DNA from: Convolutriloba macropyga
Taxonomy: Eukaryota
Direction of reading: 5' to 3'
DNA length: 64,000 nucleotides
NCBI RefSeq assembly: GCF_964194025.1
Contig: NC_134468.1
Location: 42,594,001-42,658,000 of the forward strand
Made by a program: the position numbers and the translations under genes. Below are positions 2,211 through 64,000 of the stretch, piece by piece. Position 1 is the first letter of the stretch. Each line of letters opens with the position of its first letter. The notes under the pieces were generated by a model. That model made no database searches, was not told where the DNA came from, and saw only the letters and a program-made list of their open reading frames with translations.

Positions 2211-2219
2211 CTATATGTC

Positions 2220-7140: not shown

Positions 7141-7144
7141 ATGG

Positions 7145-31344: not shown

Positions 31345-31396
31345 GATAGCCTGTGACAAACAATATAATTTTAATTTCAAGTATTCGCATTGCCTA

Positions 31397-36567: not shown

Positions 36568-36731
36568 TGTAGTAATAGAGGCTGGCTAGAGGTATAACGG
36601 GGGCGGGGGTGACGGACATTTTTTGCAACATTTTTACAAAATTTGGCGTCCCTACCCGTTGTAAAAACGTCGTTGCAAAAATGTCCCCCCCCCCCCCCCC
36701 GTTGTACCTCTAGTCAGCCTCTATTACTACT
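36568..36731. mobile_element. 164-bp foldback MITE / solo hairpin with Polinton-like (T)GTAGT...ACTACT ends
   Basis: ~70-bp imperfect inverted arms (GTAGTAATAGAGGCTG...CAGCCTCTATTACTAC) around a ~20-nt loop; flanks AGCCTT / GGCCTC (4/6 match). Confidence 0.75.
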
Positions 36732-38305: not shown

Positions 38306-38511
38306 TAGTCGCAATTTTGATATGATTTTTGATCACATGTAAAAAGTAAATTCATGATGTAAAACTGATGTTGACGTTTGTAACCTGAAACTAAAACATG
38401 CTAAATCAACAAGTAAAGCTTAAACAGAAATAGAAAGTCAGAATACGACCAAGGAAAAGCCAACGTCGTGTTCAGAAGAGAGATACTATTTAAAAACTCA
38501 ATAAAACCTTT

Positions 38512-38640
38512 AGTAGTGGATAAAACAAGGGATTCAACCACCAGCAAAATTTGTCCCTTTCTCCTAACGCTAATCGTGCATGTCGAATCGGGCCAAATTT
38601 TACTGTTTGTTGAACCCCCTTGTTTTATCCACTACCATAT
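38512..38640 (+). repeat. Left TIR (itself a hairpin)
   Basis: Reverse complement of ~55398-55525 with ~4 differences; first ~49 nt pair with last ~49 nt. Confidence 0.95.
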
Positions 38641-39125
38641 TCACCACTATAAATACATACTACACGCACAACTTTGTGTACAAGAATGTACATAGCTAGT
38701 ATAATTTATGCAATTCATACACTAATATCCAAAAGTTCTCAAAGCTAGATTTAAGCCTAATTTCATATTTAATATGCCAAACTATACTGAAATAAATCAG
38801 GTTAATCATCTCACAAAGTTTTTTTTCAATAGAATCGGATGGATTGAAAATAACTCAAAATTGCGTAGAACTGGATAATAAGAAACAAGTTTCTTTAAAA
38901 TTTTGACTTTAACCAGGAGACGATTGATCTATGATGTTTAACTGAGTGATTCTATGTACCTGGTTACATTTTTGAGCCGAGTCTTGGGAGGTCTTGTTAA
39001 AAGGTTGACTCGTCTTTACCACGCTACGGCAGTACTGCTCGACCTTTCTAAATGGCAACTGTGGGGGAGGGTGCAACTACAGAATGCTTGAGGGTAGTCC
39101 AATATTGAATCTGTCCAATATTGAA

Positions 39126-39527
39126 TTAAATCTGTCCAATATTGAATGAACAAGCAGATAAATATTCCGGCACATTCACTTCAAACTTGTCCATTGTTTC
39201 CTGATGCTCGTAACTTAGTAGGTCCTTCTTGAACTTGGAGAGGAACAACTGGAAGAGTTCTGTTTTAGTTCGTTTTCCAGTCTCACTTTCATGTTCGGCG
39301 GTGTTGTCGGGTATGCATTTGTTCTCCTTACAAAATGTAATCATTTGATTTGTTAAATTAGTCAACTCGTTTATATTTTCTTCAGATAAAGAAGTGGATG
39401 ATAAAGCTCCAGTTATTAAAGTCTCGTCAAATGACAAAAATTGTTTAAAATTTTTCGCTAGTTCTTGTAGTGAAGTGAAACTCATGATGAATAGCCAAAA
39501 AATGCCGTGGAGAATAAAGGTCCCCAC
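39126..39527 (-). CDS. Polinton hypothetical protein
   Basis: 133-aa ORF (probable ATG at MSFTS) inside the element; no recognised motif. Confidence 0.45.
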   Translation of the reverse strand: MGTFILHGIFWLFIMSFTSLQELAKNFKQFLSFDETLITGALSSTSLSEENINELTNLTNQMITFCKENKCIPDNTAEHESETGKRTKTELFQLFLSKFKKDLLSYEHQETMDKFEVNVPEYLSACSFNIGQI

Positions 39528-39970
39528 GTGGAGAATTATTCTAGAACATTCTTTTTTCTAGAATATTTTGACATGATTTTTAAGTTAAAATTAGTTATCA
39601 TTTCCCAAGTAATTACATGTTTTAAAGTAAAATAATAATTAAATCCTTCTATTAAATTGAATGATTTGTATAATCTATTAAAAATTAAATTAAGATTTTA
39701 ATAAATACTCACTTTACTAGCTAATTTTTAAGGGTGACTTACATTCGAAATTTTCACTTGTTTTCATTCTGTTAGTGGTGGTGGCATTCTTTGTCAATGG
39801 CGGCGGCCATTTTAGCATGACATGCACTTTTCATTCGATCTGCTAAGCAGTGTAATGCGATGTTAAACCAAGCTGGTTGACTTCTTGTACTATTAGTGGT
39901 TGCTAAATATGAAAGAAAGCGAACAATAATAGCACAGTCAAAAACACTGAGATCGGTGGAAACACAGTGA

Positions 39971-40204
39971 TTAGTGTTTTTCTATGTCTTCTTGAATACT
40001 ATACTTATAAACATGCTCTCTGAACTGATTTCTTGTGTGACCATATCTATATCTATGAAGATAAATACATAGTCTACATTTCCTATTTCTAAATCTATAT
40101 AATGATATATGTTTATAAACATTACACATACTGCACGTTAGATATTGATCAGGATCAGAATAATGATATCCCAAATGTTCTATATAATCTTTAACCTTAA
40201 CCAT
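39971..40204 (-). CDS. Small Polinton CxxC...CxxC zinc-ribbon protein
   Basis: 77 aa, CSMC and CRLC; A-rich start context (AAAAATATG); divergent from pPolB. Confidence 0.55.
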   Translation of the reverse strand: MVKVKDYIEHLGYHYSDPDQYLTCSMCNVYKHISLYRFRNRKCRLCIYLHRYRYGHTRNQFREHVYKYSIQEDIEKH

Positions 40205-40345
40205 ATTTTTACATACATAACAAGAATATTCTAATTCTTAACAATTATTACAACATTCTTTCCAAGGTTTATTTATGCATTTATTGCATTTCATTTTCAT
40301 TTTTCGAAAAATTAATTTTTGATTATTTCCCTAAATAAATACATC

Positions 40346-43300
40346 ATGTCTCAATCAACTAATACTAGTGTCATAAACTTCTGCGATGTCTGTAATCTAT
40401 CCTTTGAATCAAAGAAGGGTTTATACAGACACCAATCTTATGATCTCAAACATAAGGAACTATTGGAGAAAATGTTTGAGTCTGAAGAAGAAGAAATCTT
40501 GGAGAGGGTGTATAATCCGGATGAAGATGAATATATTATTAAAACTAGGGCTAAAACTAAAACAGAAACTAAATCAGAAACTGAAACTGAAAACAATATC
40601 TATTCTAAGATTAGGTTTATATGTAAAGAATGTCATGAAGAATTTTGAATTAAAGTAGCTCTAACTACTCATTCATATAGTCACAATCGCATGTATCTAG
40701 AAAACACAGAAGACTTCGATATAAACTCAAGTCAGAACATGAGAGAATTTTATATTACTGATAAAGGTGGGAATTACATTGAAGAGATAGATCAAGCAAC
40801 TGATTACTCTTTAGAAGAAATTAAAAACTGTTACCAGTTTCGTAAAGTTAGGAGTTTTAAATATAAGATCACGGCTGAATGTGATTATAAGAAGAGAACC
40901 AAAGAAGAAGAAGTTAAAACTACTAAAATATTTTTCAATACTGATTATATTAATAATAATGCAATATATGAATATGGTGACTTCAATCGGTGGCTAGATT
41001 TCGAAAAGGAAATATATGAAGGTTATGGTTATGATTTTGAGTTTCTTGGAATAAGAAGTATTCAGTTAAACATTGAACCAAGTAAAGCATCTATTGGTAG
41101 TTATATAGATTTACCTCCTAATCTCAAAAACTCTAAATCGATATTAAATATACGTAGGTATAAATACAACTGCTTACAACTAACTATAACTGCTTGGCTA
41201 CATCCCGCCCCACACCATGCAACTCGAGAAAGTAAGTATGTAGATAAACTAATTGAACCAAGACAACAACATGAAGATGGGTATACACACCTTGTGGTAA
41301 TGGTAAAATAGAATTGTTTGAACAAGTGGATGATTTTAATAAAGATAGAAAAGATGTAAGAATACTAGTTTGGAGTAATGGTCAAATAGAACACTGTGCC
41401 CTAATAAAAAATATAGGAACCTTGTTAGAACGACCAAATAAAAACAACATTAAATATTATTATTGTGATAGGTGTACCTATTGGTTTAACTCACAAATTA
41501 AATATGATAAACACAAATGCAGCACCTCATTCAAACCAGAGATTGTTTGTCCTAAGAAAAAACATATTACTTTTGTAAATGAGCACAAACGTCAGAATAT
41601 AAAAAATATTATAACTGCCGATATAGAATGTTGCATTACCGATGTCACAACTAATGACTGTAAATTTGTAATAGCTGAACATATTCCAATAGCTGTGGGT
41701 TACACCTGGCAAGGTAACTTCAAACACTACTTCGGTCTAGGCTGCATCAAAAGATTTGCTAGAGATCTGTTAGAAATAGAAACTGAGAATATTTTCAAAC
41801 ATAATGAAAAGATGATATTCACAGAAGAAGATAAATTATATCATGAAACTAATAACACTTGTCATATCTGCAGCAAAACATGTATTAATAAAGTAAGAGA
41901 TCACTGTCATGAAACTGGTAAATAAAGAGGACCAGCATGTAAAATATGCAATCTAAGATACAAACAACAAAACTTCATTCCAGTAATTTTCCATAATGGC
42001 TCTGGCTATGACTTCAACCTACTATACAGTGAACTCTTTAAACAGAATAATGATAAAAGAAAAGTAGATAACATACCACTAGCTGCTGGTAAATCTAAGA
42101 TGTTTAGCATTGGTTGTCTCAAATTCTTAGACAGTTATAACTTCTTAGCTATGCCTCTAGATCAAATGGCAAAGATATACGGATGTAAAACTAAAACATT
42201 ATATCCATATGAATACTTTGGTTTAGACTCCTATAATAATCTTATAGGTAATCTAAAATTAGAAGACTTCAAATCCTCTCTCTCGAATAAATTACCAACA
42301 CAAGAAGAAGTCGATATCTTTAATAAAGCCAACAGTCATAAAACTGGAAAAGATCTAACTATAGAGTATTTACAGAATGATGTGGAAATTTTAGACTATT
42401 GCATGAATGAATATGTTAAACTAAGTATGAAAGAATTCAAGCTCAATCCACTACATTACGTTAGTCTCCCGGGTTATAGTTTTGATTGTTGGTTAATGTC
42501 AAGCGGTGTAACATTAGATACATTACAAGATAAACAAATGCTAGATGATTTTGTTGGAGCAAAGAGAGGTGTTATATGTGCAATAATGGGTGATAGATAT
42601 ATAGATAACAGTGATGGTAAGACCATATGGTACATAGACAACCTATATGGTTATGCAATGATGCAAAAGTTACCTTATAAGGACTTTCAGTTTACTACTA
42701 CTACTCTAGATCCACGAACGGACTTCGTCCGTGGCAAGCGAAGCGGTTTCCTCGATACAATATTGAATACTCCAGATGATAGTGATCATGGTTACTATAT
42801 AGTTTGTGATATTGATTATACTAATGAATTTAAAGAGAGAACAGAACAGTTAGCACTAATGCCTAATAAGAGAAAGATAAATGATAATGAATTGGGATAC
42901 CGACAAAGAGAGAAAAGTAAAGCAAGATCCGAGAAATTAATCTTAGACCAAAACAAAAAAACAGAATATATGGTTCATTATAGGATGTTAAAGTTCTATG
43001 CTAAGATGGGAGTAAAAGTAACAAAAATACATAGAGTAATTAAATTTTAACAAGACTACATATGTAGAGATTATATCCAAAACAACACTAACAAAAAAAC
43101 AACAGCTAAAACTGAAGCAGAGAAGGATGTAAGGAAACTAATGAACAACTCACTATATGGAAGAATGTGCATGAATCCCTTACACTTCTTTCAAAGCAAG
43201 TTCTTGCATGATGAAGAAAAGATAATGAAAAGTATAAGTAAACCAACATTTAAGAATATAACTAGATATAAGGATTATAGCCAAATTGAATATATAAAGA

Positions 43301-44019
43301 AAAAAATAGAATATGACTCTCCAGCATATGTAGGTGTTACTATATTAGAATTAAGTAATTTACACATGTATGATGTATTCTATAATATTCTACAACCATC
43401 TCTCAAAAATCTACAACTCCATTATATGGATACTGATAGTTTTGTATTAAGTTTTACTGAAGGTAATGTCGACAATGAACACATGGATTTAAGTAATCTA
43501 GAGCCCCCTATCAAAACAAATAATAAAGTGCCTGGTAATTTCAAACATGAAATGGGAAGTAAGATCATAGAAGAGTTTGTGGCCTTAACACCAAAGACAT
43601 ATAGCTTTAAAGATTATCCCAACAAAACTGAAGAGAAAGGAATAAAGAATTGTAACAATGCTAAACATGAGGAGTATTATAATGCACTAATGTATAACAC
43701 AGAGAGAAGTGTAGATGAATGTAGAATACAAAAAGTTGGTGATAACATGACAACAACAAAAACAAGTAAGATAAGTCTAAACACATTTAATGATAAAAAA
43801 TTTTATGTAAATAATATTAAAAGCTATCCTCATGATGAGAATCTATATCTATTCAAAGGAGATTTAATAAAAATGATCCGCCAAGCATCAGTGAAACTGC
43901 TTCGCAGATCATTAGATGGAGACAAAGACCTACTGGTTAATAATATTCTAGAACTAACCATTAATGATGATAGAAAGTTGATTGAAGTTGCTATTATATT
44001 ATATAATGAGCTTTGTTAA
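40346..44019 (+). pseudogene. Protein-primed family B DNA polymerase with N-terminal C2H2 fingers and HNH/EndoVII-like insert; disrupted
   Basis: ExoI ADIEC, RDHCHETGK*RGPAC..CN insert, ExoII FHNGSGYDF, ExoIII YLQNDV, Pol A YID-NLYGYAM, Pol B KLMNNSLYG, Pol C YMDTDS; in-frame stops at 40646, 41923, 43048 and a break near 41280-41314. Confidence 0.93.
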
Positions 44020-44035
44020 TTTTTATAACAAATAA

Positions 44036-44356
44036 TTATAGACCTAATTCATTCATTACTTCCATATGGTTGGTAGTTAGTATATTATAAATCATTATCT
44101 GAGCCATATATTTTTCCATAATGTCTCCCATGATTGTATTCTTATGTAGTGTAGCTCCAGCTATTATATTTTTTTTATATTCTAGAAATTTTATTATCTT
44201 CCCAGCCGCATCTACATATTTAGAATAAATTGAAATTCTTAAATCATCATGATTTGGTTCCTTAATATGATCAATAAACTCATCTATAGTATTACAATGT
44301 CTTTTACAAGCTAAACATTTTTTTAGATTAAGAGAGAAGCTGTTTTCATTATCCAT
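44036..44356 (-). CDS. Polinton hypothetical protein with CxxC...H...H zinc-finger-like motif
   Basis: 106-aa intact ORF, CLACKRHC..F..HIKEPNH; AAAAAATG start. Confidence 0.6.
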   Translation of the reverse strand: MDNENSFSLNLKKCLACKRHCNTIDEFIDHIKEPNHDDLRISIYSKYVDAAGKIIKFLEYKKNIIAGATLHKNTIMGDIMEKYMAQIMIYNILTTNHMEVMNELGL

Positions 44357-44392
44357 TTTTTACTCTTATTATAATTTTTCAATACATAAAAA

Positions 44393-46254
44393 ATGACTAA
44401 ACTAGATAAACTTATAGAATTAAACAATCTAGACAAACAAAACAGAAGAAATAGATTAGAAGATAAATTAAAACAACAAGAATATTATTGTGAAATAGAA
44501 GAGTTATTCGATCCTTTAACTAAAACTTTAAATGAAAACACTGAACGGAATCTAGCATTAGGTGAACAAACATTAAGAGCAATAGATTGGCAAAATCAAG
44601 AGTTAGATAAACAAACTAAGATGATCGAGCAAGCTGGTTCCCAGTTTAATGAAACTGCTTCCAAGATTGGTGAAACGTTAAAGGGGACTCAAGATATAGC
44701 ACCAGTTTTTGTAGATACAAAGACAGCCAAACTTCTTCATGACATGGGGGCTCAAACTAATCCTCAATTAAAATTAGAACTCATAGATTTACCTACTAGG
44801 AGATATAAAATGAATGGTGTTGATATAACTCTAGAGAAGAGTGCATTTTTAGTTAGGGATAATGTATATGAGTTTTCAGAAGGATTTACTGATTTTCTTA
44901 CTAAATCAATTGTAACATATGATGATAATATTGAGGAAGATGAAAACAAAATTAAAAGGTTTTTAAAGGATATTAGATATGATTTAGTAAAGGGGATAAG
45001 AAAAGCGGTAGATATAGAACAATAAAACGTATAATGGAGGTAAAAGATGACGTATTTGGCAGGGGTTTAAATAGCAACCCAAACCCAAATAGTTTAATAG
45101 AAAGATTAGAATTATTAATACTGGAAACAAAAGCTGGTCATGATGGATTATATGATAAAATGCTAGATGTATCTAAGCAACTATTATCTATGAATATTAT
45201 TAATCAAGACCAACAAGATAATTTTGTTTTTAACTACGGTAAAATAGGTGAAATCATGACTACGTCCATGAGCAAGCTCACAACTTCGTTGATCAGTGGA
45301 CCTGCTTTGCAGATAGGTGAAACCATGACTACATCCAAAAAAAATGTGGAAAAACAACAAAAACAACAACAACAACATCAACAACAACTAGCTAAAGAAG
45401 TAATCAGTCCTCAAATAACAAAGTTTAAAAGACAAAGAATAATACCACTATATAAAGATGAAACATGGTCAGCTGATTTAATTGATAAGTCATTTCTAAG
45501 TAAATACAATAATAATTATAAGTTTATATTAACAGTTATAGATATATTCACAAAATATGCATCGGCTATTCCATTAAAGAATAAATCTGGTTTATCTATA
45601 ACTAATGGTTTTAAAACAATCCTATCAGAAGGACGAAAACCAGAAAAGTTATGGGTAGATAGAGGTAGTGAGTATTACAATAAAACATTTATATCTTTAC
45701 TTAAAGAATATGAAACCGGCAAAGCCGCTTCAGGGATATAGCTATATTCTACTTATAGTGATTTAAAGGCTGTGTTTATAGAGAGATTCAATAGAACAAT
45801 ATTACATATAATAAATAAACCAATGTTCATCAATGGTGATGGTAATTGGGTAAATATATTAAATGATGCGGTCATAACATATAACAATAACATTCATTCA
45901 ACAACTAATATGACACCAGTTGATGCTTCTAATAATCCTGATAATGTTAAATACACTTTTAGTTTTAAGAATATTAAACCCAAACTTAACGTTGGTGATT
46001 ATGTTAGAAATGTAGATAAACGTAATATCTTCTCTAAAGGTTACGCTTCTAATTGGAATAGAGAATTGGTTAAAGTTAATGAAGTTCTAAAAACACAACC
46101 ACCAACTTATAAAATAGGAGATATTAATGGTGAGAAAATAGAAGGTAAATATTACGAACAGGAATTATTAAAATCTGAGTTTGATTTTGAATCTAATAAT
46201 AAAGTTTTAGAATCATTAAATATATTTCTTAAAATTAATAATGACAAGAAATAG
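44393..46254 (+). pseudogene. Retroviral-type (rve, DDE) integrase, probably fused to an upstream coiled-coil/core-like domain; one frameshift (~44990) and one stop (45739)
   Basis: WSADLID, VIDIFTKY, LWVDRGSEYYN, IERFNRTI catalytic motifs; C-terminal VGDYVR..KGY..NW..YYEQEL domain; upstream LFDPLTK and LIERLELL..KAG segments. Confidence 0.9.
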
Positions 46255-46951
46255 ATTCAATCAAGCTAAACATAAATCAACATCAACATCAACAAACAAC
46301 TTAACACTAAGTAAGGCTCCTGGGTTATTCCTAGAAGATAATGATGATATTGATATGAAGGATACCTATAAAATTACAAATGTTCATCCTCCTAGAGATG
46401 AAAAAGATGTTGTTAATAAAGAGTATTGTGACAATAACTTATTATCCTCTTCTAATAAAATAGACATTTTAAGTAGAAACATAACTGAACTAAGAAAGGG
46501 TGACTTTGATAAAGTTACAACTAAAACGTTACAACTAAATGAAACACAAGTTAATGAAGAACTAATTAATGGGTTTATTGAATCAACAAATGAAGTCAGA
46601 AATACTGTTAAGTTTTGTAATAAAGTTGCTGCAGATACTATCTCTAAATATAATTATTTGAAGCAAGAATTTGATAAGATTAAGTTTAATCAGAATATAA
46701 CTAACATACACTTAGATGAAATGTTTACTAACGGTCTGAGAGAAATGAAAGAATACAATAAATCTCTTAGAGGTGTTATAGTACAATATATAATTGCTAT
46801 ACTTTTACAAACTAAGTTACTTGATAATAAAGAGAAAGACAGACTTGAGATGCATTATAGTTTTAATCGAGAAGATATAATGAAAGAAATAGAAAGAATT
46901 TTTACTAATGAAAATCAGCAAAGCAATGACCAATCCAACAGCACCGAGTGA
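46241..46951 (+). CDS. Polinton protein with fibre-repeat-like motif
   Basis: DIDMKDTYKITNVHPPRDEKDVVNKEYCD resembles the D-A/V-x-N-K-x-Y-V-D fibre repeat; intact 236-aa ORF. Confidence 0.55.
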   Translation: MTRNRFNQAKHKSTSTSTNNLTLSKAPGLFLEDNDDIDMKDTYKITNVHPPRDEKDVVNKEYCDNNLLSSSNKIDILSRNITELRKGDFDKVTTKTLQLNETQVNEELINGFIESTNEVRNTVKFCNKVAADTISKYNYLKQEFDKIKFNQNITNIHLDEMFTNGLREMKEYNKSLRGVIVQYIIAILLQTKLLDNKEKDRLEMHYSFNREDIMKEIERIFTNENQQSNDQSNSTE

Positions 46952-47474
46952 GAGATTACTATATCCAGATTTGTCATCAGTATCAGAAAGATTAATAAAC
47001 GAAAAGATACAAGCTAATAATAAATTCAACAATAATATTAACATTATAAAAGATATTAGAAATTATTATAAAACTGAAACTAATAACTATAATAAGAAGT
47101 TAAGTAGATATAAGAATTATATTAACATAGCTGAGATAACAGAAATAGTATTATCATCAATAGCAACAACTGCAACAACAACATCAGTTTCATTAACATG
47201 TATAGGGTTAGCTTATTCTATACCAACAGCTTTTGCTACAGCAACTGTTTGTGGTTCATTATCAAAAACAATTAATACTAAAATTAGAAATAAAATTATA
47301 AAGTATTCACAAATGTATATTTCAAGTAAACAGTTTAGTGATAAATTTAATAAACTATATACTAAATCAATAAATGATAATAAAATAGATAATGATGAGT
47401 ATATTGATTTTGTTAAGTTATATGAGGATTATAAGAAGAATAAGAAAAACAGGCTGAGTATTTTTTTAGATTAA
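46926..47474 (+). CDS. Polinton helical/hydrophobic protein with N-terminal PTAP and LYPDL motifs
   Basis: MTNPTAPSERLLYPDL, coiled coil, then a ~45-aa uncharged stretch (IVLSSIATT...TVCGSL). Confidence 0.7.
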   Translation: MTNPTAPSERLLYPDLSSVSERLINEKIQANNKFNNNINIIKDIRNYYKTETNNYNKKLSRYKNYINIAEITEIVLSSIATTATTTSVSLTCIGLAYSIPTAFATATVCGSLSKTINTKIRNKIIKYSQMYISSKQFSDKFNKLYTKSINDNKIDNDEYIDFVKLYEDYKKNKKNRLSIFLD

Positions 47475-47608
47475 AGATATTAGTGCTTAGTAATAACAAT
47501 GTTTTTAGTTATAATAATATTAGTATTAATATTTATCGATAAATATATAATCATAATCTTAGTTATAATCATAATCATAAACATAATATAATCATAATAT
47601 AATCATAA

Positions 47609-48064
47609 TCATAAACATAATATAATCATAATTATAATCAAATAATTATCTTTTTTTGTACCTAAGTATAACCCTCTTCCTTTTTGTACTAATTTTATAC
47701 CTTCACCAGTAGTTGCAAATTTAATTAAATCAGGTTTGGCTGCTAAAGCAGCTCTAGGGTTTCTAGATGCAGCTGCACTTCCTATTTTACTTGCTATTTC
47801 TAATGCTCTTACTGGATTATGAGCTGCCTTCTTTCCAAAGTTAACTGTAGCCCTAACAACACTTTTAAAGAAATCTTTAAGTACTTCTGCTTCTATTGTT
47901 GCATCAGATACTGTCATTGATTTATTCCTTCTACATAAAACACAATTACCTTTTAACATCTTAGTTTCTTTTGAAGTAATAGCTCCTCTTATATTAACAG
48001 AACCACTGTAATGTCTACCTCCAACACAATATGAATTAGTTTTGAACTTATTTAAAAGACTCAT
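47609..48064 (-). CDS. Putative virion core/membrane-active protein (zinc ribbon + amphipathic helix + GxG motifs)
   Basis: YC....H...GNCVLCRRNKS zinc-ribbon-like N-terminus; LKDFFKSVVRATVNFGKKAA amphipathic helix; GEGI and KGRGLYL. Confidence 0.65.
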   Translation of the reverse strand: MSLLNKFKTNSYCVGGRHYSGSVNIRGAITSKETKMLKGNCVLCRRNKSMTVSDATIEAEVLKDFFKSVVRATVNFGKKAAHNPVRALEIASKIGSAAASRNPRAALAAKPDLIKFATTGEGIKLVQKGRGLYLGTKKDNYLIIIMIILCL

Positions 48065-48082
48065 TTCTATATATAAAAAATA

Positions 48083-48244
48083 ATGGAAGTTAAAAAGTAT
48101 AATCCCTTTGTTGTTATTAAGCCTAAGCCTACGGGTTCCACCCGCGAGCGAAGCTCGAAGACTGAGCCTAAGCCTAAGGTTAAGCCCAAGCCCAAGGTTA
48201 AGCTTGAAGCTAGAGGCTTGGCTCTAGAGAATAAAAAAAATTAG
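48083..48244 (+). CDS. Small basic KP-repeat peptide (possibly frameshifted)
   Basis: MEVKKYNPFVVIKPKP...EPKPKVKPKPKVK; TATATAAAAAATAATG start context; below ORF-track cutoff. Confidence 0.35.
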   Translation: MEVKKYNPFVVIKPKPTGSTRERSSKTEPKPKVKPKPKVKLEARGLALENKKN

Positions 48245-48496
48245 ACATTATTTATGCTAAAGGTTTTGTTAATACTAATAAGAAATAGTTAGGTATTAAC
48301 AAGAGTAACAATTAGAGCTGACTAGCTATAAATATAAGTATAAGTATATGGTTATGTATAAGTATTAGTATATAATTATAACAATAACTATATTATACTA
48401 TAATTATAAATTATCGCTAGAGTTATATCTAAAATTATAATTATCGCTAGAGTTATATCTATGATATACCTTCACCTTATATCTATGATATACCTT

Positions 48497-49901
48497 CTAC
48501 GAGATTATATCAACCATCTTAATACCATCACTATTCACACTAATAACCTTCCTAGTTAATACTAATGCATGACATATAACATCTGCAACTGCAGCACTAA
48601 ATTTAAAATTAAGTTGTATTGGTTGTTGTTGTACACACCATGATATATCTCTAATTTCTATATTACCATCATTGGCAACTGCACCAGGATTAGCATTAAC
48701 TCTATATAGAGCTCTATCATTATTATTCCTTTTTAATTTTAGTTTAAATCCTAAACCATATATAAGCTTTTCTAAATCATTTACGAAACCAAATAGATCA
48801 CTTTGATATCGAGTATCAAATACATATATTCTATAACTACTCTTGAATGTTCTATGATTTATATATGGTTTTTTATTATGTGGTAGCCCATTATAGTCTT
48901 TATTAAAGCTAACAATCTCTTTAAAAGCATCATTATAATTATTAGTTCCATAATTAATATTTATTCTATCCTCGGGATAAAAACCCACTACCAATCTTAC
49001 AATAACATTCAGTAACATTCATTACATCAAATGTACTTGCATCATGAGTTAGCTCATTAACATTATTATTTTCAAAACCAACTATAATATATTGTGGTCT
49101 TTCCATACCACTTTCCATACCTAGATCAAACAAGAAGTTAGTAGCATTGGGTACATTCTTATAAAATGTCTTCCTTTCATAATAACTAAAGTCTACATTA
49201 TTCTTTTTATTCAAAACCCTTTTGCACAATAATTCTATTGTCATTACTAGGATCAATACTAGGTACACAACATGATATATCTCTAATTTCTATATTACCA
49301 TCATTGGCAACTGCACCAGGTTTAGCATTAACTCTATATAGAGCTCTATCATTATTATTCCTTTTTAATATTAGTTTAAATCCTAAACCATATATAATCT
49401 TTTCTAAATCATTTACGAAACCAAATAGATCACTCATTCTTAATCATCATATACATATGTCCTCGTTGTGCAGCAATATGGTCACCTCTAAGTTGACTAT
49501 CTCTATTGCCCTGATTTCTAACAAAACCACTCATATTCATCACCAGTACTAGTTAATAATTTATATATCAATAGATTGGGATGACAATGATCTATATATT
49601 CAATAGTCCTACCACCACTAGTCTCAAGTTTAATTGAACTGAATAATGCCATCATACCATAATTAACTAATCTAATATCAGCAAATATCATTAGCAAATA
49701 CACCACCAGCATAATCTGATACAACTCTATCTCTAGATTTGAATCACGCAAATTTAGGTGACTCTCTTCTCTATTGAGTATGATATTAATATTGGTATTA
49801 ACCGTATTCATTGTTGCTAGATTATTAGGTTTATATTTTATAATCTTACTTTTATGTATATCATTATTATAACCATAAGTTGTATCCAAATTAAAATCCA
49901 T
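48497..49901 (-). pseudogene. Major capsid protein (double jelly-roll), frameshifted, with a 172-bp internal duplication
   Basis: Collinear fragments: LVNYGMMALFSSIKL..IEYID; LFGFVNDLEKIIYGLGFKLIL.RNNND; PQYIIVGF..STFD; YPED; IYVFDTRYQ; PIQLNF..HALVL. These match the Polinton/adintovirus MCP pattern. Confidence 0.82.
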
Positions 49902-49917
49902 TTTTATTAGATAAAAA

Positions 49918-50759
49918 ATGAGAGACAATTTAATGTTAAGAGAACTACAAAATATACACGAAGCTTTAACTGAAACTAAAGAAGAGTATACACTTAACTT
50001 TAGAATGATAAAACTAACAGAAAAGTTTAACTTTAGTGAACCTATACTTAATACAACAAAATTAGGTTCAATTAGATTATCTGTTTATAATTCGGTGTTT
50101 AATGTGAATAGGAGAAATAATCAATTCTTATATGCTAGTACTGTTATAGAAGATGATGAAGCTTTACCTCGGGTTCTCAGCTCTGTTCCTAACCTTAACC
50201 CTATCTCTACCTCAAGCCCAAACATTAAATCTATACTTAACCATAATTATAAAGGAATCCCGTTGCTATATTCAACTATTACACCGGGAGCATATGAGTT
50301 AACTGACATAGCAGAATTAATAAAAGAAGAAATTGATGGTAATGTTGTAATAGAACCTGATAAGAATACGATGAAATGTTTAATGGAAATAAAACAAGGA
50401 GCACTCAGCTTTGATATAGAAAACTCACTAGCCTCATTCTAGGATTTGGAAAAATAATTTATAAAAAAGGTAGATATAAATCTCAGAAAATTATTGATAT
50501 TATGGGTTTTAGTACTATTAACATTCATTGTAATGTGATATCTGGAGCTAAAGATAATGGTAAAGATACAGACATACTATATACTTTTAATCTAACTGAA
50601 CCACCAGGTTACTTGATAAATATAATACCAACTATTATCTTGTATCAAAATGTAAATAAAGATAGAATAGAATATATAGAATTTCATATTAAAGATGAGC
50701 ATGGAAGACCTATAGACTTTAATGGTGATGTATTAAGTTTTACTTTACATTTGATTTAG
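49918..50759 (+). pseudogene. Minor capsid protein (penton, single jelly-roll), one frameshift ~50440
   Basis: YNSVFNV..NNQF, ITPGAYEL, LGF, INIHCNVISG, PPGYLI..P..Y, DEHGRPIDFNG motifs. Confidence 0.85.
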
Positions 50760-51005
50760 ACTTATACTTATACTTACACTTAGACTTATCTGTGAAGCAG
50801 GTTCCCTGATACTTATACCTATAGTTATTTGCGAAGCAGGTTCCCGATACTTAGACTTGTACTTAGACTTACACTTATCTGCGAAGCGGGTTCCCTGATA
50901 CTTAAACTTATACTTATCTGCGAATCAGGTTCCCGATACTTAGACTTGTACTTAGACTTACACTTATCTGCGAAGCGGGTTCCCTGATACTTAAACTTAA
51001 ACTAA
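50760..51005. repeat. Convergent intergenic array: hexamer repeats alternating with 25-bp GCGAAGC-hairpin units
   Basis: (ACTTAG/ACTTAT)n interleaved with 5 copies of TATCTGCGAAGC(A/G)GGTTCCC(T)GATA. Confidence 0.8.
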
Positions 51006-51006
51006 A

Positions 51007-52395
51007 CTACAAAACTCTCCGATCCCAATTAATTCTTAGTTTACCATTAACATTTTTATTTTTAGTTATATCAATGACAATATAATTATAAGGCTCTTTC
51101 CATACCTTATTACATATATTAGCAAAATCGTTATAACTAAGTTCAACATTATTAAAGAAATCTTGATATATAGATATGAGGACTTTACCTCTCTGTTCAA
51201 ATAAAATAAATAGATTACAGTTCCCTCTAACACTCTGCCTATCCAGAGAGAACAGGTTTTGATTAAGATATATCATATTACAGTTATTATGTCTACCTCT
51301 ACAAAAGTATTCATTAATAACTGGTTCTTTGGCTCTAACATCATCGAATATCATTAGTTTCTTTAAGTCTTTGGGTAGTTTATCGGGAGATGGCAAATCT
51401 TTTATATCTTTAATAAATTCAACATCTGCTTTTGGGTTTATTCTTTCTATACCATGGTACTGATCACCAGTAGGTCCAATGATGTATAGCTTATCAAAGT
51501 ATATACTAGCTAGAATTAGTTTTTTCAATAAGAATGTCTTACCACATTCACTAGGACCAGATATTATACATCTAAAGTTATCTGGGAATGCGGCTTCAGT
51601 AATTATATCATCATCATTTAACCATAAATATAGATCATCATTTATGTTTACAAATATCGGTGAAACCGCTTCACGGATATTATTAGTAGGACTATTACTA
51701 ATGCTATTACTATTTCTATCCCTATTAGATTTACTCCTTTGATATTTTTCATCAAATAGATATATAAAATTATCATTATCATTATCATTATCATTATCAA
51801 TGACATTATCCTTATCATTAACATTATCATTATCATTAACATTATCATTATCATTACTAGTAAAGCTACTTCGTAGATCATTAACATTATCATTAACATT
51901 ATCCTTATCTTTATCACCACCTCTACTACAACTTAAACAAGAACACTCATTATATATTCCTGGATATTTACATTGATTAACTAGAATATTCAAAGCACTT
52001 TTAATTCTAAATCCTCTATCAATAAGATAGATCATATATAAACAATAAGCCCCACAATAAGATTCATCATATTGTTGTATTCCCTCATTAGAGCCTAGAT
52101 CAACATATTCTTCTAAAAATAAAGGTGGAGTTTCTACACCAAAACTATCAAAGTAATATGTTGGACCACCTTCTCTTCTTATAACTAAAACGCAATGTGT
52201 ACCTTCAGTTGGATGTAGATTTACAATAATGTTAGAGTTAGGTTCACTTACCATTTCTGGTTTATCATCTCTCATTACAATCTCAATAGGTGTTAGACTT
52301 ATATCTTTACCTATATCTTTTATTCTGATACCACTCATAGCATTATTATCAATATTAAATTTATTATTGAATTCCACAAAAGTTAGGATGAGCAT
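51007..52395 (-). CDS. Adenain-like cysteine protease fused via a DN-repeat linker to an A32/FtsK-like packaging ATPase
   Basis: Protease GTH, YFDSFG, IQ..SYCGAYC; ATPase Walker A GPSECGKT, Walker B LMIFDD, RGRH, LNQ, VRGN; uninterrupted 462-aa ORF. Confidence 0.9.
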   Translation of the reverse strand: MLILTFVEFNNKFNIDNNAMSGIRIKDIGKDISLTPIEIVMRDDKPEMVSEPNSNIIVNLHPTEGTHCVLVIRREGGPTYYFDSFGVETPPLFLEEYVDLGSNEGIQQYDESYCGAYCLYMIYLIDRGFRIKSALNILVNQCKYPGIYNECSCLSCSRGGDKDKDNVNDNVNDLRSSFTSNDNDNVNDNDNVNDKDNVIDNDNDNDNDNFIYLFDEKYQRSKSNRDRNSNSISNSPTNNIREAVSPIFVNINDDLYLWLNDDDIITEAAFPDNFRCIISGPSECGKTFLLKKLILASIYFDKLYIIGPTGDQYHGIERINPKADVEFIKDIKDLPSPDKLPKDLKKLMIFDDVRAKEPVINEYFCRGRHNNCNMIYLNQNLFSLDRQSVRGNCNLFILFEQRGKVLISIYQDFFNNVELSYNDFANICNKVWKEPYNYIVIDITKNKNVNGKLRINWDRRVL

Positions 52396-52479
52396 TTTTA
52401 TATAATAAATTTATTAAATCTAAGTCTAATTATAAGTCTAAGTCTAAATCTAAATCAAATCTATATTTATTATATAAAA

Positions 52480-54230
52480 ATTGAAACAGGTAGTGCAGTT
52501 TTTGTTTTTATTATTATAATTGGCATTTGTTATATAATATATGATTCAATACCAAGTAAATATACAAAACTAGAAGAAAGCTTTGGTGGATTTATGAATA
52601 GGAGTCTAGTTAGATTTGAATATGAAAAGTCACCACTACATACTTTTGTTTATGGTGGAACTGGAACGGGTAAAACATATTTTATTAGACAATACTTATA
52701 GTTATACTTAGACCATGATCAAGTTCAAAATCAAGTTCAAGATCAAGTTCAACATCAAGTTCAAGATCAAGATCAAGTTCAAGATCAAGTTCAAGATCAG
52801 GTTCAAGATCAAGTTCAACATCAAGTTCAAGATCAAGATCAAGTTCAAGATCAAGTTCAAGATCAAGTTCAACATCAAGTTCAAGATCAAGTTCAAGATC
52901 AAGACCAAAGGTCCATAGTTATAGTTTGTAAAGATGACAGAGACTGGATAGATCCTGAGTCTAATAAGTTTTATACTGGGTTTAATAAATGTGATATAAA
53001 TATGATCACAAAAAATAATATGCATAAGTTTCAAAATTGTGTAATAGTACTTGATGATATGGGTGACAGGTTAAATAAGGATATAGCTTATTATATTGCT
53101 GAAGGTAGACATTATAATTTTCAAATGATTGTAATGTGTCATAAACCAGCTCAAATAATTAATACAGCAAGAATGAGTTGTGATACTATTTACCTAACAA
53201 CTTATAATGGACCTGACCTATTTAAAAACTTTAATGAGATATATAAATTTGAAATGACTTCAATAAAATAATTAGTGAATTAAATAGTAACTATTATAAT
53301 TGTACAGATGGAATGTCAGATGAACTTCGCTATGGTATAATTAAATATAATAAAAAGGAAAATACTTTTATTATTATTAGTAATAATAGAACAATGATAT
53401 ATGATTCAAGAGTTGGTTTCCTTGATTTAAAAGCTCTTAGTTTAAAAGATGATTTAGAAAGAGAAGATATAAATAAACTTATAGCATATATGATGATTAA
53501 TGCAACAGATAGAAATGTTATTAATCATGATAATTATCAGTTTTATTTTAATAAACTTCTTACTTTAAAAAATATTAAAATTCAGAATGATGTTTTAACA
53601 AAAGAGATGATTAAGGGAAATGGGTATGAAAATTTTATCAAATATTGGTGGAATTATAGGCACAGGTTTATTTATATTTAATTGTTTTTATCCTGATTCA
53701 ATATCAAGAAATGCTGGAACTGTAGCAATGGGAGCAAGTACAATGTTGAGTAGAGTAAATACATTAGTTAATGTTGGATATGGAGAAGAGTTGGAAGGTG
53801 AAACACGAACAAAGTCCGATTCTTCGATCTGCGAAGCAGGTTCCATGATCCAAGAGGAATATATCGATCGGGGAAGCAGTAATACTGATCAGGGAAGCAG
53901 TTATACTGTGTAACTGTGACTTCGTATCAGCGTAACTGTGACTTCGTCAATGAAGAGATGGGAATTTTGAATAGAAAGGGAGGAAAGTTTTTAAACAAAC
54001 TATATATAAATAATGAAGAATTTAGAGAAGAGATTATAAATTTTGTTAAAGATAAAAAAGACTTAGACCTTGATTTGATCTTAGATAAGAGATGTAAAAC
54101 TAATACACTCAATACTTTAGGAAATAAATATTTAGCAGAGTTTATCACATCTAAAGATAATACTAAAGATTTAATTGAAATCATGGCTAAATATTATCCA
54201 CAAAGTTTGTACACCGATTCTACAGCATAG
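52480..54230 (+). pseudogene. Second A32-like ATPase with N-terminal hydrophobic anchor, DQVQ repeat insert and long C-terminal extension; disrupted
   Basis: Manual translation from 52480 (ATT in the ATG position after TTATATAAAA): ETGSAVFVFIIIIGICYIIY...VYGGTGTGKT, stop at 52699, (DQVQ)n, in frame with VIVLDDMG..EGRH..MCH..TARMS (53002-53271); downstream fragments linked by frameshifts (inferred). Confidence 0.75.
52717..52908. repeat. 12-bp/6-bp tandem repeat GATCAAGTTCAA (encodes DQVQ)
   Basis: Directly visible; preserves the ATPase reading frame. Confidence 0.95.
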
Positions 54231-54347
54231 CTAATATTATCTGCGAATTTGCAAAACAACTCAGTTGAGCAGTTTGGTAAACCATGAACAAAGTTCGTTC
54301 GAGAACCACGAGCAAAGCCCAATCACTGATAATTTTATCTATTAAAA

Positions 54348-55199
54348 ATGCTTTTACAATGTTTAGAGTGTAACTATAAATGTGGAAACATTGCTGTTTT
54401 AAAATATTATTATGAATCATTTCATAAAGATAAAACTGATAAATGCATGTGTGGTAATATAATATTAAGTGGCATTTGTGCTAATGATTTTTCCCCATGG
54501 GGTTGTTCTTTAAAAAATGAATCTAGTTCTAGTTCTAATTCTAGTTCTAACTCTAGTTCTAATTCTAATTCTAATTCTAGTTCTAACCCTAGTTCTAGTT
54601 CTAACCCTAATTCTAACTCTAGTTCTAACCCTAGTTCTAGTTCTAGTTCTAGTTCTGGTTCTGGTTCTAACCCCAGTTCTAGCTCTAGTTCTGGTTCTGG
54701 TTCTATCTATGACTATAACTCTTACTCAGATCCTAACCCTAACCCTAACCTTATCCCTAACCCTAACTTTAACCCCAGCTCAGAAGTATTAACTAGATGC
54801 TGTAATAAGTGTAATTATATAAAACCACTAAATAATTTTGATGAGGGTAAGTAAACATGTAGAAGTTGTACTTCAGCTAAAGTTAATTGTCCATATTGTA
54901 CTTCTGTTGTGAGATATGATGGGATATGGGCTCATGTAAAGAAACAACATCCAGATATAGAATTGACTAGAGGATTTAGTAGAAATATAACTGATCGGTG
55001 TAACCGCTTCGCGGATAAAACAATTAATCCTAGTTGCCCAAGTCCTAGAGCTGTAAGTCCTTTAGTTAATAACCAAACAGAGGAAAATTGTTCATGTAAA
55101 TACTATAATTTTGTATCATTTCTTATTAATAATGGAATAAATATAGAAAAAATAAAAGAAAATATAAATTTATTGAAAAGTATAGATAATTTGAAATAA
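54348..55199 (+). pseudogene. Cys-rich multi-zinc-finger protein with S/N/P hexamer-repeat linker; one in-frame stop at 54852
   Basis: CLEC, CMC, CNKC, then read-through TCRSC..CPYC...HVKKQH in the same frame as 54909-55199. Confidence 0.65.
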
Positions 55200-55397
55200 A
55201 AAGTATAAAAAATAAAAAATGTCAAAAAAGAAGGATTCACTCTTTAAGAGCGAAAAAGAGCGATCTTTTCTACTGGGGATCACTCCGAATAAGAGTGAAT
55301 CACTCTTAAAGAGTGAAATGTAAATTTTGCTTTAATTTTTTGATTTTTTGTTTTTTTTTTGATTTTAATTGATTTTTTTATTGAATTTAGAGCTAAT

Positions 55398-55525
55398 ATA
55401 TAGTAGTGGATAAAACAAGGGATTCAACAAACAGTAAAATTTGGCCCGATTCGACATGCGCGATTAGCGTTAGGAGAAAGGGACAAATTTTGCTGGTGGT
55501 TGAATCCCTTGTTTTATCCACTACT
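55398..55525 (-). repeat. Right TIR (itself a hairpin AGTAGT...ACTACT, 55402-55525)
   Basis: Inverted copy of left TIR; followed by TSD ACCTTT. Confidence 0.95.
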
Positions 55526-55769
55526 ACCTTTGATTTCATAATGAAAAAGTTTTGAAGAAGGTTAACATAAGATGACATGCCCTAGTTCAACTCCAACTAT
55601 TATCTTGCAAGTTCTGGCAAGATTTATGCCTTTGATCGTTAGCTTGCAAGATCGTGCCACGAATTTTTCAAGACTCAATCTTGCTTATGATTAGGCACAA
55701 TCTTGCGACACAACAGTCGGTTTTTGACTATTGTTAATTGTTGATAGTATGCTTTAAACATGCTTTCAC

Positions 55770-57989: not shown

Positions 57990-60900
57990 TGTTTTTCAAA
58001 AACAATGGCCCCCCAATTGTTCCACTTACTACCGTGGACAATTTGCTCAAAAAGATTTTTCAGCTCACAATTAGCGCTTTGAATTTGAATAAAAAGTTAC
58101 CGTTTTTTCTCAGAAGAATCCCTCCAACTGTTCCAAACATTACCGTGGACAGTTTGATGTGACAATAAATAAGAGTTTTATTATCTCACAATTAGCGTTA
58201 TGCCTTTGAATAAAAAAGTTCTGTTCTCTTCTGTCTAATAGTTTTGAAGTTTTTGTCCAAATATGGTTTTCTTTATTGTTGTGTTTTTTTATGGTTTACT
58301 GGTTCGCTTCAATTTTATTGGAAATGATTTGAAAATCAAAAAATTTCAACAAATTTCAGAACAAACATTTCCAATTTCTCATTTTTTTCAGGCTTCAAAT
58401 GAGACATCTCGAACTTCAATTTCAAATCACTCTACTACTCTAGTTTTTCAGGGAAAAAAGAGCGCTATAACTCTTCTGACCTATCATATGCAGATGTATA
58501 ACTTTTGCATTGTGTACGTAAAATTGTGCTTCTTCCATGATCATTTTTTTTCTTTGAATTTTTTTTTTTGCAGGGGTTTAATCCCTATGTCACATTACGG
58601 ATCCGCTTTCTGGACATTACGCCTTTCATAAGATTTATAGTAAAGTAACGATAAAAGTTCGCAAGCAGACTAGATTCTGATAACATGTTTGTTTTGACAA
58701 TAGAAGCCAGCTCTTTCAAGTTCTGCAACCTTCCATAATCTACTCTACTTTTCTCGCCGTCAAACAATCTAGCTCAACTTTTTGCTGAGAACGCTATCAT
58801 CGGAACCATTTTGACAACTTTAAAGTAAAAAAAATACCCTTGTGCCTCTGTTTACCGGTCAATTACAATGGAGCCTATCGATTTCCAATCCGAAGAAATA
58901 ACCGAGTTCCATTCCACATGAAAATTTGTATAAAGTATGCTTCCAGCGTAATAAACAAATTTTGGAGGTTTTTGTTCACAGATTAATTGACTTTCAATGG
59001 TCGGAGGGAACGTATTTTATTCTATAAGTATTATTTTTCCGAAGAATCCCTCCAACTGTTCCAAACATTACCGCAGTCGGTTTGATGTGACAATAAATAA
59101 AATAAATAAGAGTTTTGTCATCTCACAATTAGCGTTTTGCTTTTGAAAAAAAAACACTTCTCGTCTGTCTAATAATTTTGAAGTTTTTGTCCACGTGTTG
59201 TTTTCTTTATTGTTGTGTTTTCCTTTTATAGTTTACCGGTTCGCTTCAAGTTTATTGAAAATGATTTGAAACTCAAAAAATTTCAACAAATTTCAGAACA
59301 AACATTTCCAATTTCTCATTTTTTTCAGGCTTCAAATGAGACATCTCGAACTTCAATTTCAAATCACTCTACTACTCTAGTTTTTCAGGGAAAAAAGAGC
59401 GCTATAACTCTTCTGACCTATCATATGCAGATGTATAACTTTTGCATTGTGTACGTAAAATTGTGCTTCTTCCATGATCATTTTTTTCTTTGAATTTTTT
59501 TTGCAGGGGTTTAATCCCTATGTCACATTACGGATCCGCTTTCTGGACATTACGCCTTTCATAAGATTTAAAGTAAAGTAACGATAAAAGTTCGCAAGCA
59601 GACTAGATTCTGATAACATGTTTGTTTTGACAATAGAAGCCAGCTCTTTCAAGTTCTGCAACCTTCCATAATCTACTCTACTTTTCTCGCCGTCAAACAA
59701 TCTAGCTCAACTTTTTGCTGAGAACGCTATCATCGGAACCATTTTGACAACTTTAAAGTAAAAAAATACCCTTGTACCTCTGTTTAACCGTCAATTACAA
59801 TGGAGCCTATCGATTTCCAATCCGAAGAAATAACCGAGTTCCATTCCACATGAAAATATGTATAAAGTATGCTTCCAGCGTAATAAACAAGTTTTGGAGG
59901 TTTTTGTTCACAGATTAACTGACTTTCAATGGTCGGAGGGAACGTATTTTGTTCTATAAGTATTATTTGTCCGAAGAATCCCTCCAACTGTTCCAAACAT
60001 TACCGCAGTCAGTTTGATGTGACAATAAATAAAATAAATAAGAGTTTTGTCATCTCACAATTAGCGTTTTGCTTTTGAAAAGAAAAACACTTCTCGTCTG
60101 TCTAATAATTTTGAAGTTTTTGTCCAAGTGTTGTTTTCTTTATTGTTGTGTTTTCCTTTTGTAGTTTACCGGTTCGCTTCAAGTTTATTGAAACTGATTT
60201 GAAACTCAAAAAATATCAACAAATTTCAGAACAAACATTTCCAATTTCTCATTTTTTTCAGGCTTCAAATGAGACATGTTGAACTTCAATTTCAAATCAC
60301 TCTACTACTCTAGTTTTTCAGGGAAAAAAGAGCACTATAATTCTTCTGACCTATCATATGCAGATGTATAACTTTTGCATTGTGTACGTAAAATTGTGCT
60401 TCTTCCATGATCATTTTTTTTCTTTGAATTTTTTTTGCAGGGGTTTAATCCCCATGTCACATTACGGATCCGCTTTCTGAACATTACGCCTTTCATAAGA
60501 TTTAAAGTAAAGTAACGATAAAGAGTTCGCAAGCAGACTAGATTCTGATAACATGTTTGTATTGACAATAGAAGCCAGCTCTTTCAAGTTCTGCAACCTT
60601 CCATAATCTGCTCTACTTTTCTCGCCGTCAAACAATCTAGCTCAACTTTTTGCTGAGAACGCTATCATCGGAACCATTTTGACAACTTTAAAGTAAAAAA
60701 AATAACTTTTTGCCTCTGTTTAACCGTCAATTACAATGGAGCCTATCGATTTCCAATCCGAAGAAATAACCAAGTTCCATTCCACATGAAAATTTGTATA
60801 AAGTATGCTTCCAGCGTAACAAACAAGTTTTGGAGGTTTTTGTTCACAGATTAACTGACTTTCAATGGTCGGAGGGAACGTATTTTATTCTATAAGTATT

Positions 60901-63900: not shown

Positions 63901-64000
63901 CTAGATTCTGATAACATGTTTGTATTGACAATAGAAGCCAGCTCTTTCAAGTTCTGCAACCTTCCATAATCTACTCTACTTTTCTCGCCGTCAAACAATC
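57990..64000. repeat. Tandem satellite, ~935-bp unit, >6 units, runs off right edge
   Basis: AACATTACCG at ~58137, 59064, 59997, 60932, 61874, 62812 (spacing ~927-942), then a truncated unit (63367); one GGATCC per unit. Confidence 0.92.

Follow-up and report, generated by a model that had tools for sequence, protein, structure and literature searches.

The locus described here raises the question of what purpose is served when both TIRs of a Polinton fold back on themselves: departure from the chromosome, replication, or none. The element is 17.0 kb long and lies at positions 38512-55525 of the window (the whole 64,000-nucleotide stretch of Convolutriloba macropyga DNA that was analyzed). 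It is one of hundreds of genomic copies of a virus-like DNA transposon of the Polinton type, and a perfect 6-bp TSD flanks it on both sides. The features, including a separate hairpin nearby, are:

36568..36731, no strand assigned: stand-alone 164-nt hairpin made up of end sequences of a second, distant Polinton family; its flanks agree at 4 of 6 positions
38506..38511, no strand assigned: left TSD, ACCTTT
38512..38636, + strand: left TIR, a terminal fold-back hairpin of 125 nt with 3-4 private changes
40346..44019, + strand: pPolB of class P1, split over several frames (Pfam PF03175, E 2.9e-10)
41860..41952, + strand: endonuclease-VII-like (beta-beta-alpha-metal) motif within the polymerase, with a stop codon inside it in the window copy
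45034..46254, + strand: retroviral-type integrase in two pieces (Pfam rve, E 2.2e-7, below the cut-off; homologues have PF00665)
48497..49901, - strand: double-jelly-roll capsid frames (PF21738 on two pieces; third frame placed by position only)
51007..52395, - strand: ORF with a P-loop; no family above the cut-off and no PDB match
53002..53271, + strand: A32-type packaging ATPase fragment (Pfam PF04665, E 4.5e-6)
55402..55525, - strand: right TIR, a fold-back hairpin of 124 nt whose first 27 pairs, counted from the terminal base, are perfect
55526..55531, no strand assigned: right TSD, ACCTTT

The pPolB, rve integrase, double-jelly-roll capsid and A32 ATPase frames are all broken in the window copy. 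The polymerase matches a natural P1 copy at 77%, and the integrase fragment scores 31.5 bits against the Pfam rve cut-off of 32.6. The N-terminal part of the ORF with the P-loop has what we take to be a resemblance to proteases; for a maturation protease and a minor capsid protein, no family or PDB match was found in the window copy, where the ORFs are broken, or in its relatives. The element combines the traits of Polintons/Mavericks, namely pPolB, integrase, TIRs, a 6-bp TSD, (AGT)2 ends, double-jelly-roll capsid and ATPase, and 37 of 50 relatives are bounded by TSDs. Kapitonov and Jurka reportedly described Polintons/Mavericks with (AGT)2 ends in 2006. The sections of PMC8097293 drawn on here give AGTAGT//ACTACT, with its (AGT)2 motif, as the Polinton end, and the elements described there resemble ours in pPolB, integrase, capsid, ATPase, a length of ~17 kb, TIRs and a 6-bp TSD; the difference is that the TIR of the window element itself folds back from base 1.

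The original prediction was that each TIR is a self-complementary hairpin, making the two ends inverted and direct repeats at once, and folding and alignment of both TIRs bear this out. As inverted repeats they are identical in 121 of 125 columns and as direct repeats in 97 of 126, the left TIR having one inserted base and C as its last base. Folded as single-stranded DNA, each reaches -33 to -47 kcal/mol (z -9.6 to -13.9), with none of 200 shuffles as good. The predicted geometry is likewise present: the right TIR reads AGTAGT...ACTACT, and its stem has 27 perfect pairs from base 1, then ~20 imperfect pairs, closed by a loop of ~25 nt. No match was found in Rfam.

It had been suggested that recombination between the directly oriented stems might excise the element as a circle and leave a solo TIR, or that one TIR might be mobilized as a MITE. 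The arms are identical across 27 bp. Hairpins of similar size from another family are evidently insertion substrates of the integrase, and a two-ended mini-element of the 65 type (332 bp) has a TSD. The products, however, did not appear. None of 126 full-length ends was a solo TIR flanked by a 6-bp repeat; solos were equally absent among 18 inner arms without the normal interior flank and among 30 ends of the 65 type, and none of six matches to the flipped-junction pattern was a circle junction (right-interior/TIR/left-interior). For the 124-type family both proposals are largely refuted, and we give them almost no credence. Stand-alone hairpins do exist, however: they are 116-237 nt long with AGTAGT ends, three have perfect 6-bp TSDs, and they derive from a different Polinton family, one that lacks hairpin TIRs.

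Orientation of the ends is nearly fixed. The normal interior flank was present at 350 of 368 exact inner arms (part of these 350 were inspected individually), and the other 18 comprised 16 canonical, one symmetrized and one flipped, so that flip and flop isomers do not occur in comparable numbers. Parvovirus ITRs such as those of AAV are also ~125 nt, inverted and direct repeats at once, with self-priming geometry; by contrast, the present ends have neither a flip/flop mixture nor T-shaped arms, and an HUH/Rep nickase had no Pfam match among the 22 broken ORFs or 14 long frames of relatives. With no solo TIRs and a single flipped end, neither AAV-type hairpin transfer nor LTR-like excision can therefore be routine. 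A related scenario has the 3′ hairpin priming its own extension as the main route, parvovirus-like, with asymmetric resolution that would keep one orientation. The geometry is that of a perfect primer-template, such a model has been proposed, in the portion of the preprint cited, for protist virophages and PLVs (bioRxiv 10.64898/2026.07.28.741278), and at L066 a head-to-head junction holds just one TIR, its extra arm stopping at a microhomology of 11 nt, TSD included. That junction is, however, the only one among 374 outer arms; it and the flipped end could also have formed after insertion, and pPolB is present in every element compared, which leaves this route very doubtful. A role of the hairpin in replication, which was also predicted, thus fails as flip/flop hairpin transfer but gains indirect support from compensated stem changes, a link to the polymerase and fold-back products formed in vivo.

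The genome contains at least four polymerase classes that differ in their short end sequences and have a common integrase and capsid. In 38 of 38 elements, all of which bear pPolB, the TIR class at both ends is that of the polymerase. TIR labels change only the minimum number of times on the polymerase trees (3 and 2), whereas the integrase tree needs 15 changes and the capsid tree 18 (minimum 8). The integrase and capsid genes reshuffle relative to the TIR/polymerase class, and when the replicase is swapped, integrase and capsid module remain together. Because end type tracks the polymerase and not the integrase, the hairpin is likely part of a replication origin rather than an LTR-like excision device.

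This match has its limits. Its left-TIR half is explained by linkage alone, since the left TIR adjoins the polymerase gene. The pair finder requires an inverted repeat and is hence blind to cross-class pairs; among 13 loci that it left unpaired, eight displayed one end only, and no cross-class pair occurred in the five with both ends visible or at 12 unpaired 65-type ends. On the supporting side, mixtures of sub-types are tolerated inside one class (L369, L207/208, contig C3689 and L089/L432), and seven elements with polymerase P3 have 124-type half-hairpins along the inner border of the far TIR. Counting against an origin function, nematode TIRs stayed conserved through polymerase swaps, according to the sections of PMC10748475 consulted.

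The fold itself is conserved, with exceptions. Seven of the 27 stem pairs are altered on both sides (seven distinct variants), giving a covariation score reached by none of 500 shuffles, and a stem from base 1 is also found in unrelated end sequences of 65 nt (z -9.4) and 116 nt (z -9.0). Across 63 ends, which were not selected by whole-TIR identity, divergence is ~1.2% in the loop and inner arm and 3.0-4.8% in the adjoining interior. Weighing against a hairpin origin, 5 of the 37 TSD-bounded relatives have no terminal hairpin, in 3 with TIRs 99.8-100% identical it is merely weak (z -1.7), and 7 have a bulged 15-bp hairpin. In the element L326/L327 neither end retains its inner arm, yet the TSD matches; 7 of 125 ends have a stem with three mismatches, in some elements at both ends; and all four copies of the second Polinton family of the genome are without a hairpin. 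The hairpin is thus dispensable, being weak or absent in 8 of 37 relatives. An apparent trend for short TIRs to form hairpins (10 of 11 short versus 12 of 26 long, Fisher p 0.014) was dropped, the copies coming from about nine lineages and being non-independent.

The compensated changes could stem from template switching without selection, and the stem may be a self-perpetuating scar: a damaged end would fold at a micro-palindrome and copy itself, and only products ending in integrase motifs would survive. This is a possibility to be taken seriously, though well short of an even chance, as is its corollary that subsequent template switching maintains the match between the arms while the TIR is still an origin and its folding has no use. 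Palindrome births are visible in the 229-nt doubled end of L207, and the 116-237-nt snap-back mini-elements come from a family without hairpin TIRs. Arms have been overwritten in both directions in four ends (L034, L063, L064 and L089), and young sub-families have spread despite a weak or missing hairpin. Less easily accommodated is the persistence of the stem over sub-lineages with no more than 75-85% identity between their polymerases; the inner arm is also conserved like the outer, 2.5-4x above the interior, although the loop is equally so and pairing is not singled out. L207, L411 and L066 were rejected as proof that the inner AGTAGT works as an end, because template switches after insertion explain them equally well.

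We favor, with about an even chance of being right, the reading that the TIR is the replication origin used by the element's own pPolB and that the hairpin rebuilds the duplex end or refills terminal bases before protein priming. The data show the hairpin, the fixed orientation and the polymerase-class link at both ends, the compensation, the remnants of replaced far ends and the rare fold-back products. Strand-displacement copying would free a strand whose 3′ end could snap back into a stem, identical in sequence to the duplex end that is normally present. The polymerase, with the terminal-protein domain reported for Polinton pPolBs (PMC11071308), would then start at the stem and unwind it. 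Orientation would be kept and no pairing would be required with an end 17 kb away; occasional extension of the 3′ end instead would give the rare head-to-head junctions. The hairpin would be helpful yet dispensable. We count as an analogue in favor the Streptomyces telomeres, where, in the portion of PMC5449611 cited, Tap/Tpg carry out terminal-protein priming on a folded-back 3′ end and the fold-back is a repair template. The likeness is functional only: the proteins are unrelated, the Streptomyces palindrome is 13 nt and one among several, and no integrating element is involved in that account.

A broader reading, which we consider unlikely, makes the hairpin TIR an exit device that would mark the element-host border, the polymerase recognizing and starting on this fold-back or cruciform, or cutting it by means of its endonuclease-VII-like domain. 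The same joint reading, at the same low probability, includes a cassette in which polymerase and hairpin origin are swappable, seize a shared capsid-integrase chassis and, by switching templates where the old hairpin lies, replace the sequence of the far end. Also unlikely is that each TIR extrudes as a cruciform at the element-host border and is cut by the endonuclease-VII-like domain, releasing the element. The stem begins exactly at that border, and 31 of 38 copies retain an intact motif. In another P1 copy the domain matches Pfam PF02945 and PHROGs (E 9e-9), and its best PDB sequence match is T4 endonuclease VII (E 0.017), with D-H-x-H and C-x-x-C-N aligned. The first cysteine pair, aspartate and histidine are, however, invariant in 59 homologues, the domain is present in hairpin-less sub-families too, and the position of T4 Glu65, presumably an essential residue, is Tyr. 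The fold search did not separate the beta-beta-alpha-metal nucleases, the low-confidence model (pLDDT 60) fitting Hpy99I, McrA, PacI and EndoVII about equally (Z 3.7-4.6), and such insertions have been read as homing-endonuclease relics (PMC11071308). The panhandle-and-excision model of Polintons is itself a proposal in the parts of bioRxiv 10.64898/2026.07.28.741278 used here.

That Polinton TIRs are seldom described as hairpins, as first supposed, holds in part. Hairpin or palindrome wording is absent from the main texts of PMC8097293, PMC10748475, PMC8502044 and PMC11131425, but the 2026 preprint (bioRxiv 10.64898/2026.07.28.741278), in the portion cited, describes terminal palindromes within TIRs beside the TSD in virophages and PLVs of the protist Halocafeteria seosinensis, and proposes a replication role through hairpin priming. 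Those palindromes occur mostly or preferentially with non-pPolB replicases and measure 52 nt in the subtype displayed, whereas here pPolB is in 38 of 38 elements and stems are 61-173 nt; the same portion has no orientation census, and the fixed orientation found here argues against hairpin transfer. Replicase swaps under a common morphogenesis module, with TIR co-replacement proposed, are likewise described for PLVs and Polintons in the passages drawn on from PMC11296320, bioRxiv 10.64898/2026.10.13.758929 and PMC10748475; the present case differs in that the swap is caught in one genome, both ends track the polymerase and old-end remnants persist. Neither polymerase nor TIR had a match among viral contigs. 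Among the loci of at least 3 kb scanned, out of 90 from other hosts, only L229 had both ends, and its 123-nt TIR does not fold (z -1.0). In Logan contigs from three other organisms, TIR bins were covered at low depth, where relatedness and contamination are indistinguishable, and no conclusion is drawn from this coverage.

Finally, these observations bear on how Polintons begin replication and exit the chromosome. The genome provides a natural experiment, with at least four polymerase classes that have their own ends and a common integrase and capsid, and with perfect hairpins in some and none in others; the classes supply defined cognate and non-cognate substrates for priming in vitro. In elements that bear pPolB, the fixed orientation of the ends argues against simple hairpin transfer.

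The window element is a Polinton of 17,014 bp (38512-55525) bracketed by copies of ACCTTT, and Pfam identifies within it a DNA polymerase B of the protein-primed kind (pPolB), rve, a double-jelly-roll capsid protein and an A32 ATPase, every frame being broken. Its TIRs, 125 and 124 nt long, are identical in 121 of 125 columns when aligned as inverted repeats and in 97 of 126 when aligned as direct repeats; they are alike in both orientations because each is self-complementary. The right TIR forms 27 perfect pairs starting at base 1, then some 20 imperfect pairs, with about 25 nt left in the loop (folding z of -9.6 to -13.9 for the TIRs; 0 of 200 shuffles equally good). The terminal hairpin is a real feature, and the folding scores and alignments bear out the original prediction of TIRs that are both inverted and direct repeats. 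The end motif suggests that the host is an animal. Its eukaryotic genome (1.18 Gb) carries a very large Polinton load, the integrase fragment having drawn 5323 candidates in a first look, and tandem arrays flank the element at 1-10000, 28668-35018 and 58039-64000 (units of about 937, 350, 4920 and 4163 bp).

For comparison, 20 kb was fetched around each of 50 integrase matches, of which 20 were picked for absence of the window's exact end, 10 came from the top and bottom of the match list, and 20 were picked without regard to ends. TSD-bounded elements were found at 37 of these loci.

Terminal stems in the 37 TSD-bounded elements (frequencies are biased, because part of the loci were chosen by end or by rank)
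Strong stem: 19
Expanded 173-nt stem: 3
Bulged 15-bp stem (z -3.8): 7
Weak stem (z -1.7): 3
No stem: 5

TIRs of 65 and 116 nt, unrelated in sequence, also close at base 1. Both partners have changed in 7 of the 27 pairs of the 124-nt family stem; the covariation shuffle result for these pairs is not a probability, since the rows share ancestry and were selected for being variants. Across 63 ends not selected for whole-TIR identity, divergence is about 1.2% in the loop and inner arm (the stem half adjoining the element interior), 1.9-3.2% in the middle stem and 3.0-4.8% in the interior. Counting against strict pairing, three stem mismatches persist in 7 of 125 ends, and in one element the inner arm is gone from both ends. 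The main rival explanation, that the hairpin is a neutral scar maintained by template switching, is possible, although we consider it doubtful.

Several individual ends are unusual. At L149:2422-2465 the left TIR is reduced to about 43 nt within an intact TSD, cut at an AAATTTG motif that is also the break point of far-end remnants. The left end of locus L157 has an additional AGT repeat within a perfect TSD, which would fit slippage at the terminal repeats in the course of protein priming. Minis with two ends of the 65-nt type, each a single copy so far, occur at L347:249-580 (332 bp, TSD ATAATG) and L348:308-464 (157 bp, without a TSD). A complete linear IMG/VR contig (L229, 15,597 bp) with a related integrase (40%) has a 123-nt TIR that begins CCCAG and does not fold.

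A census of 124-type ends used exact patterns, which old copies escape, and gave 374 matches for a 30-mer of the outer arm (at the element border) and 368 for a 31-mer of the inner arm. Interior letters precede the inner arm in 350 of the 368, not every one inspected singly. The other 18 were all inspected: 16 are canonical with a mutated interior (one adjoining an assembly gap), in one the inner arm has overwritten the outer, and one is a right end that is truly flipped, in an element with an intact TSD and a canonical left end. The six matches of a mirror search comprise three inner arms overwritten by the outer, a chance flank, a truncated remnant and a head-to-head junction holding a single TIR. 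None of 126 full-length ends inspected is surrounded by a 6-bp repeat. Neither solo formation nor single-TIR circles nor flip/flop isomerisation is therefore routine, and the proposals that the window TIR is left solo by excision with a circle, or is mobilised as a MITE, both fail. Routine self-priming from the hairpin conflicts with this census of end orientation and is very improbable. At L081:601-929 the right TIR and about 80 nt of interior are duplicated in tandem, adjoining a TA run.

Fold-back does happen in vivo. Locus L066 carries a 380-nt inverted copy of the interior beyond the TIR, and this copy stops at an 11-nt microhomology of which the TSD is part; the arms of L066 show no greater similarity than those of typical copies (95.3% versus a median of 95.3%). 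At locus L207 the end is doubled (229 nt) within an intact TSD. Each of these structures could have formed before or after insertion. A second Polinton family (integrase about 30% identical; 18.5-19.2 kb) has plain, non-folding TIRs in all four full copies, and is the origin of these stand-alone hairpins:

L435:1500-1673, 174 nt, perfect 6-bp TSD
L440:1500-1736, 237 nt, perfect 6-bp TSD
L467:623-738, 116 nt, perfect 6-bp TSD
Window 36568-36731, 164 nt, flanks matching at 4 of 6 positions

They make visible a route for the birth of a terminal palindrome and show that the integrase takes substrates this small.

All 38 elements compared (the 37 relatives and the window element) encode pPolB, and TIR type follows the polymerase.

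TIR type and polymerase class in 38 elements
Types 124 and 173: class P1, 18 elements
Hairpin-less G-rich type: class P2 (58% to P1), 4 elements
Type 116: polymerase 62% to P2, 1 element
Types 61, 62 and 65: class P3 (about 25% to P1), opposite orientation, 15 elements

On polymerase trees, from which the P1 row L375 was left out, end types need the minimum number of changes (3 and 2). On integrase and capsid DNA trees they interleave, with 15 and 18 changes versus a minimum of 8, the capsid bootstrap not being settled. Linkage explains the match at the near end; the far end, which lies 10 kb away beyond the reshuffled module, is the informative one. Sub-types differ between ends in four P1 elements. 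Of 13 unresolved loci, five show both ends, and no cross-class pair was seen at these; nor was one seen at 12 ends of the 65 type left unpaired, among exact matches listed for the first contigs. In seven P3 elements half of a 124-type hairpin, 41-53 nt long, survives at the far TIR's inner edge, probably through two events; the far end would have been overwritten, with the switch point falling within the old hairpin. L143, L175, L211, L215 and L405 have, within their first 100 nt, a further end motif; it sits at position 91, immediately interior to the 65-nt hairpin, and resembles what would be left of an older inner border of the 124 type. In the 61 and 62 types a second end motif lies near 275-294. 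One integrase family in this genome is combined with at least four polymerase classes.

That TIRs and replicase are replaced together has been proposed in PMC11296320 and bioRxiv 10.64898/2026.10.13.758929; PMC10748475 describes nematode Polintons with swapped polymerases and conserved TIRs. According to bioRxiv 10.64898/2026.07.28.741278, protist virophages and PLVs have terminal palindromes adjoining the TSD, for which hairpin priming is offered as a model alongside a neutral alternative; those palindromes occur preferentially without pPolB, in contrast to its presence in every element here. Our literature searches, whose scope excluded the founding 2006 paper and Repbase, brought up no description of pPolB Polintons with whole-TIR hairpins. 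One search for hairpins in Polintons turned up protein hairpins alone, and term look-ups for TIR hairpins found none in the searchable text of PMC8097293, PMC8502044, PMC11131425, PMC12220804 and PMC11071308.

Cutting of a TIR cruciform by the polymerase's endonuclease-VII-like domain would fit both the hairpin geometry and the database matches of that domain; however, the domain is shared by these polymerases generally, and we consider this unlikely. A low-confidence structural model of the domain (pLDDT 60) resembles Hpy99I, McrA, PacI and EndoVII to about the same degree (Z 3.7-4.6). The proposed role of hairpin ends in replication survives in a form other than flip/flop isomerisation. The most likely reading, at roughly even chances, is that the TIR serves as origin for the polymerase and that its fold-back would locally restore or mend the duplex end ahead of protein priming, from which the fixed TIR orientation is expected. 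Streptomyces telomeres, as described in PMC5449611, similarly use fold-back end repair before protein priming, although with other proteins.
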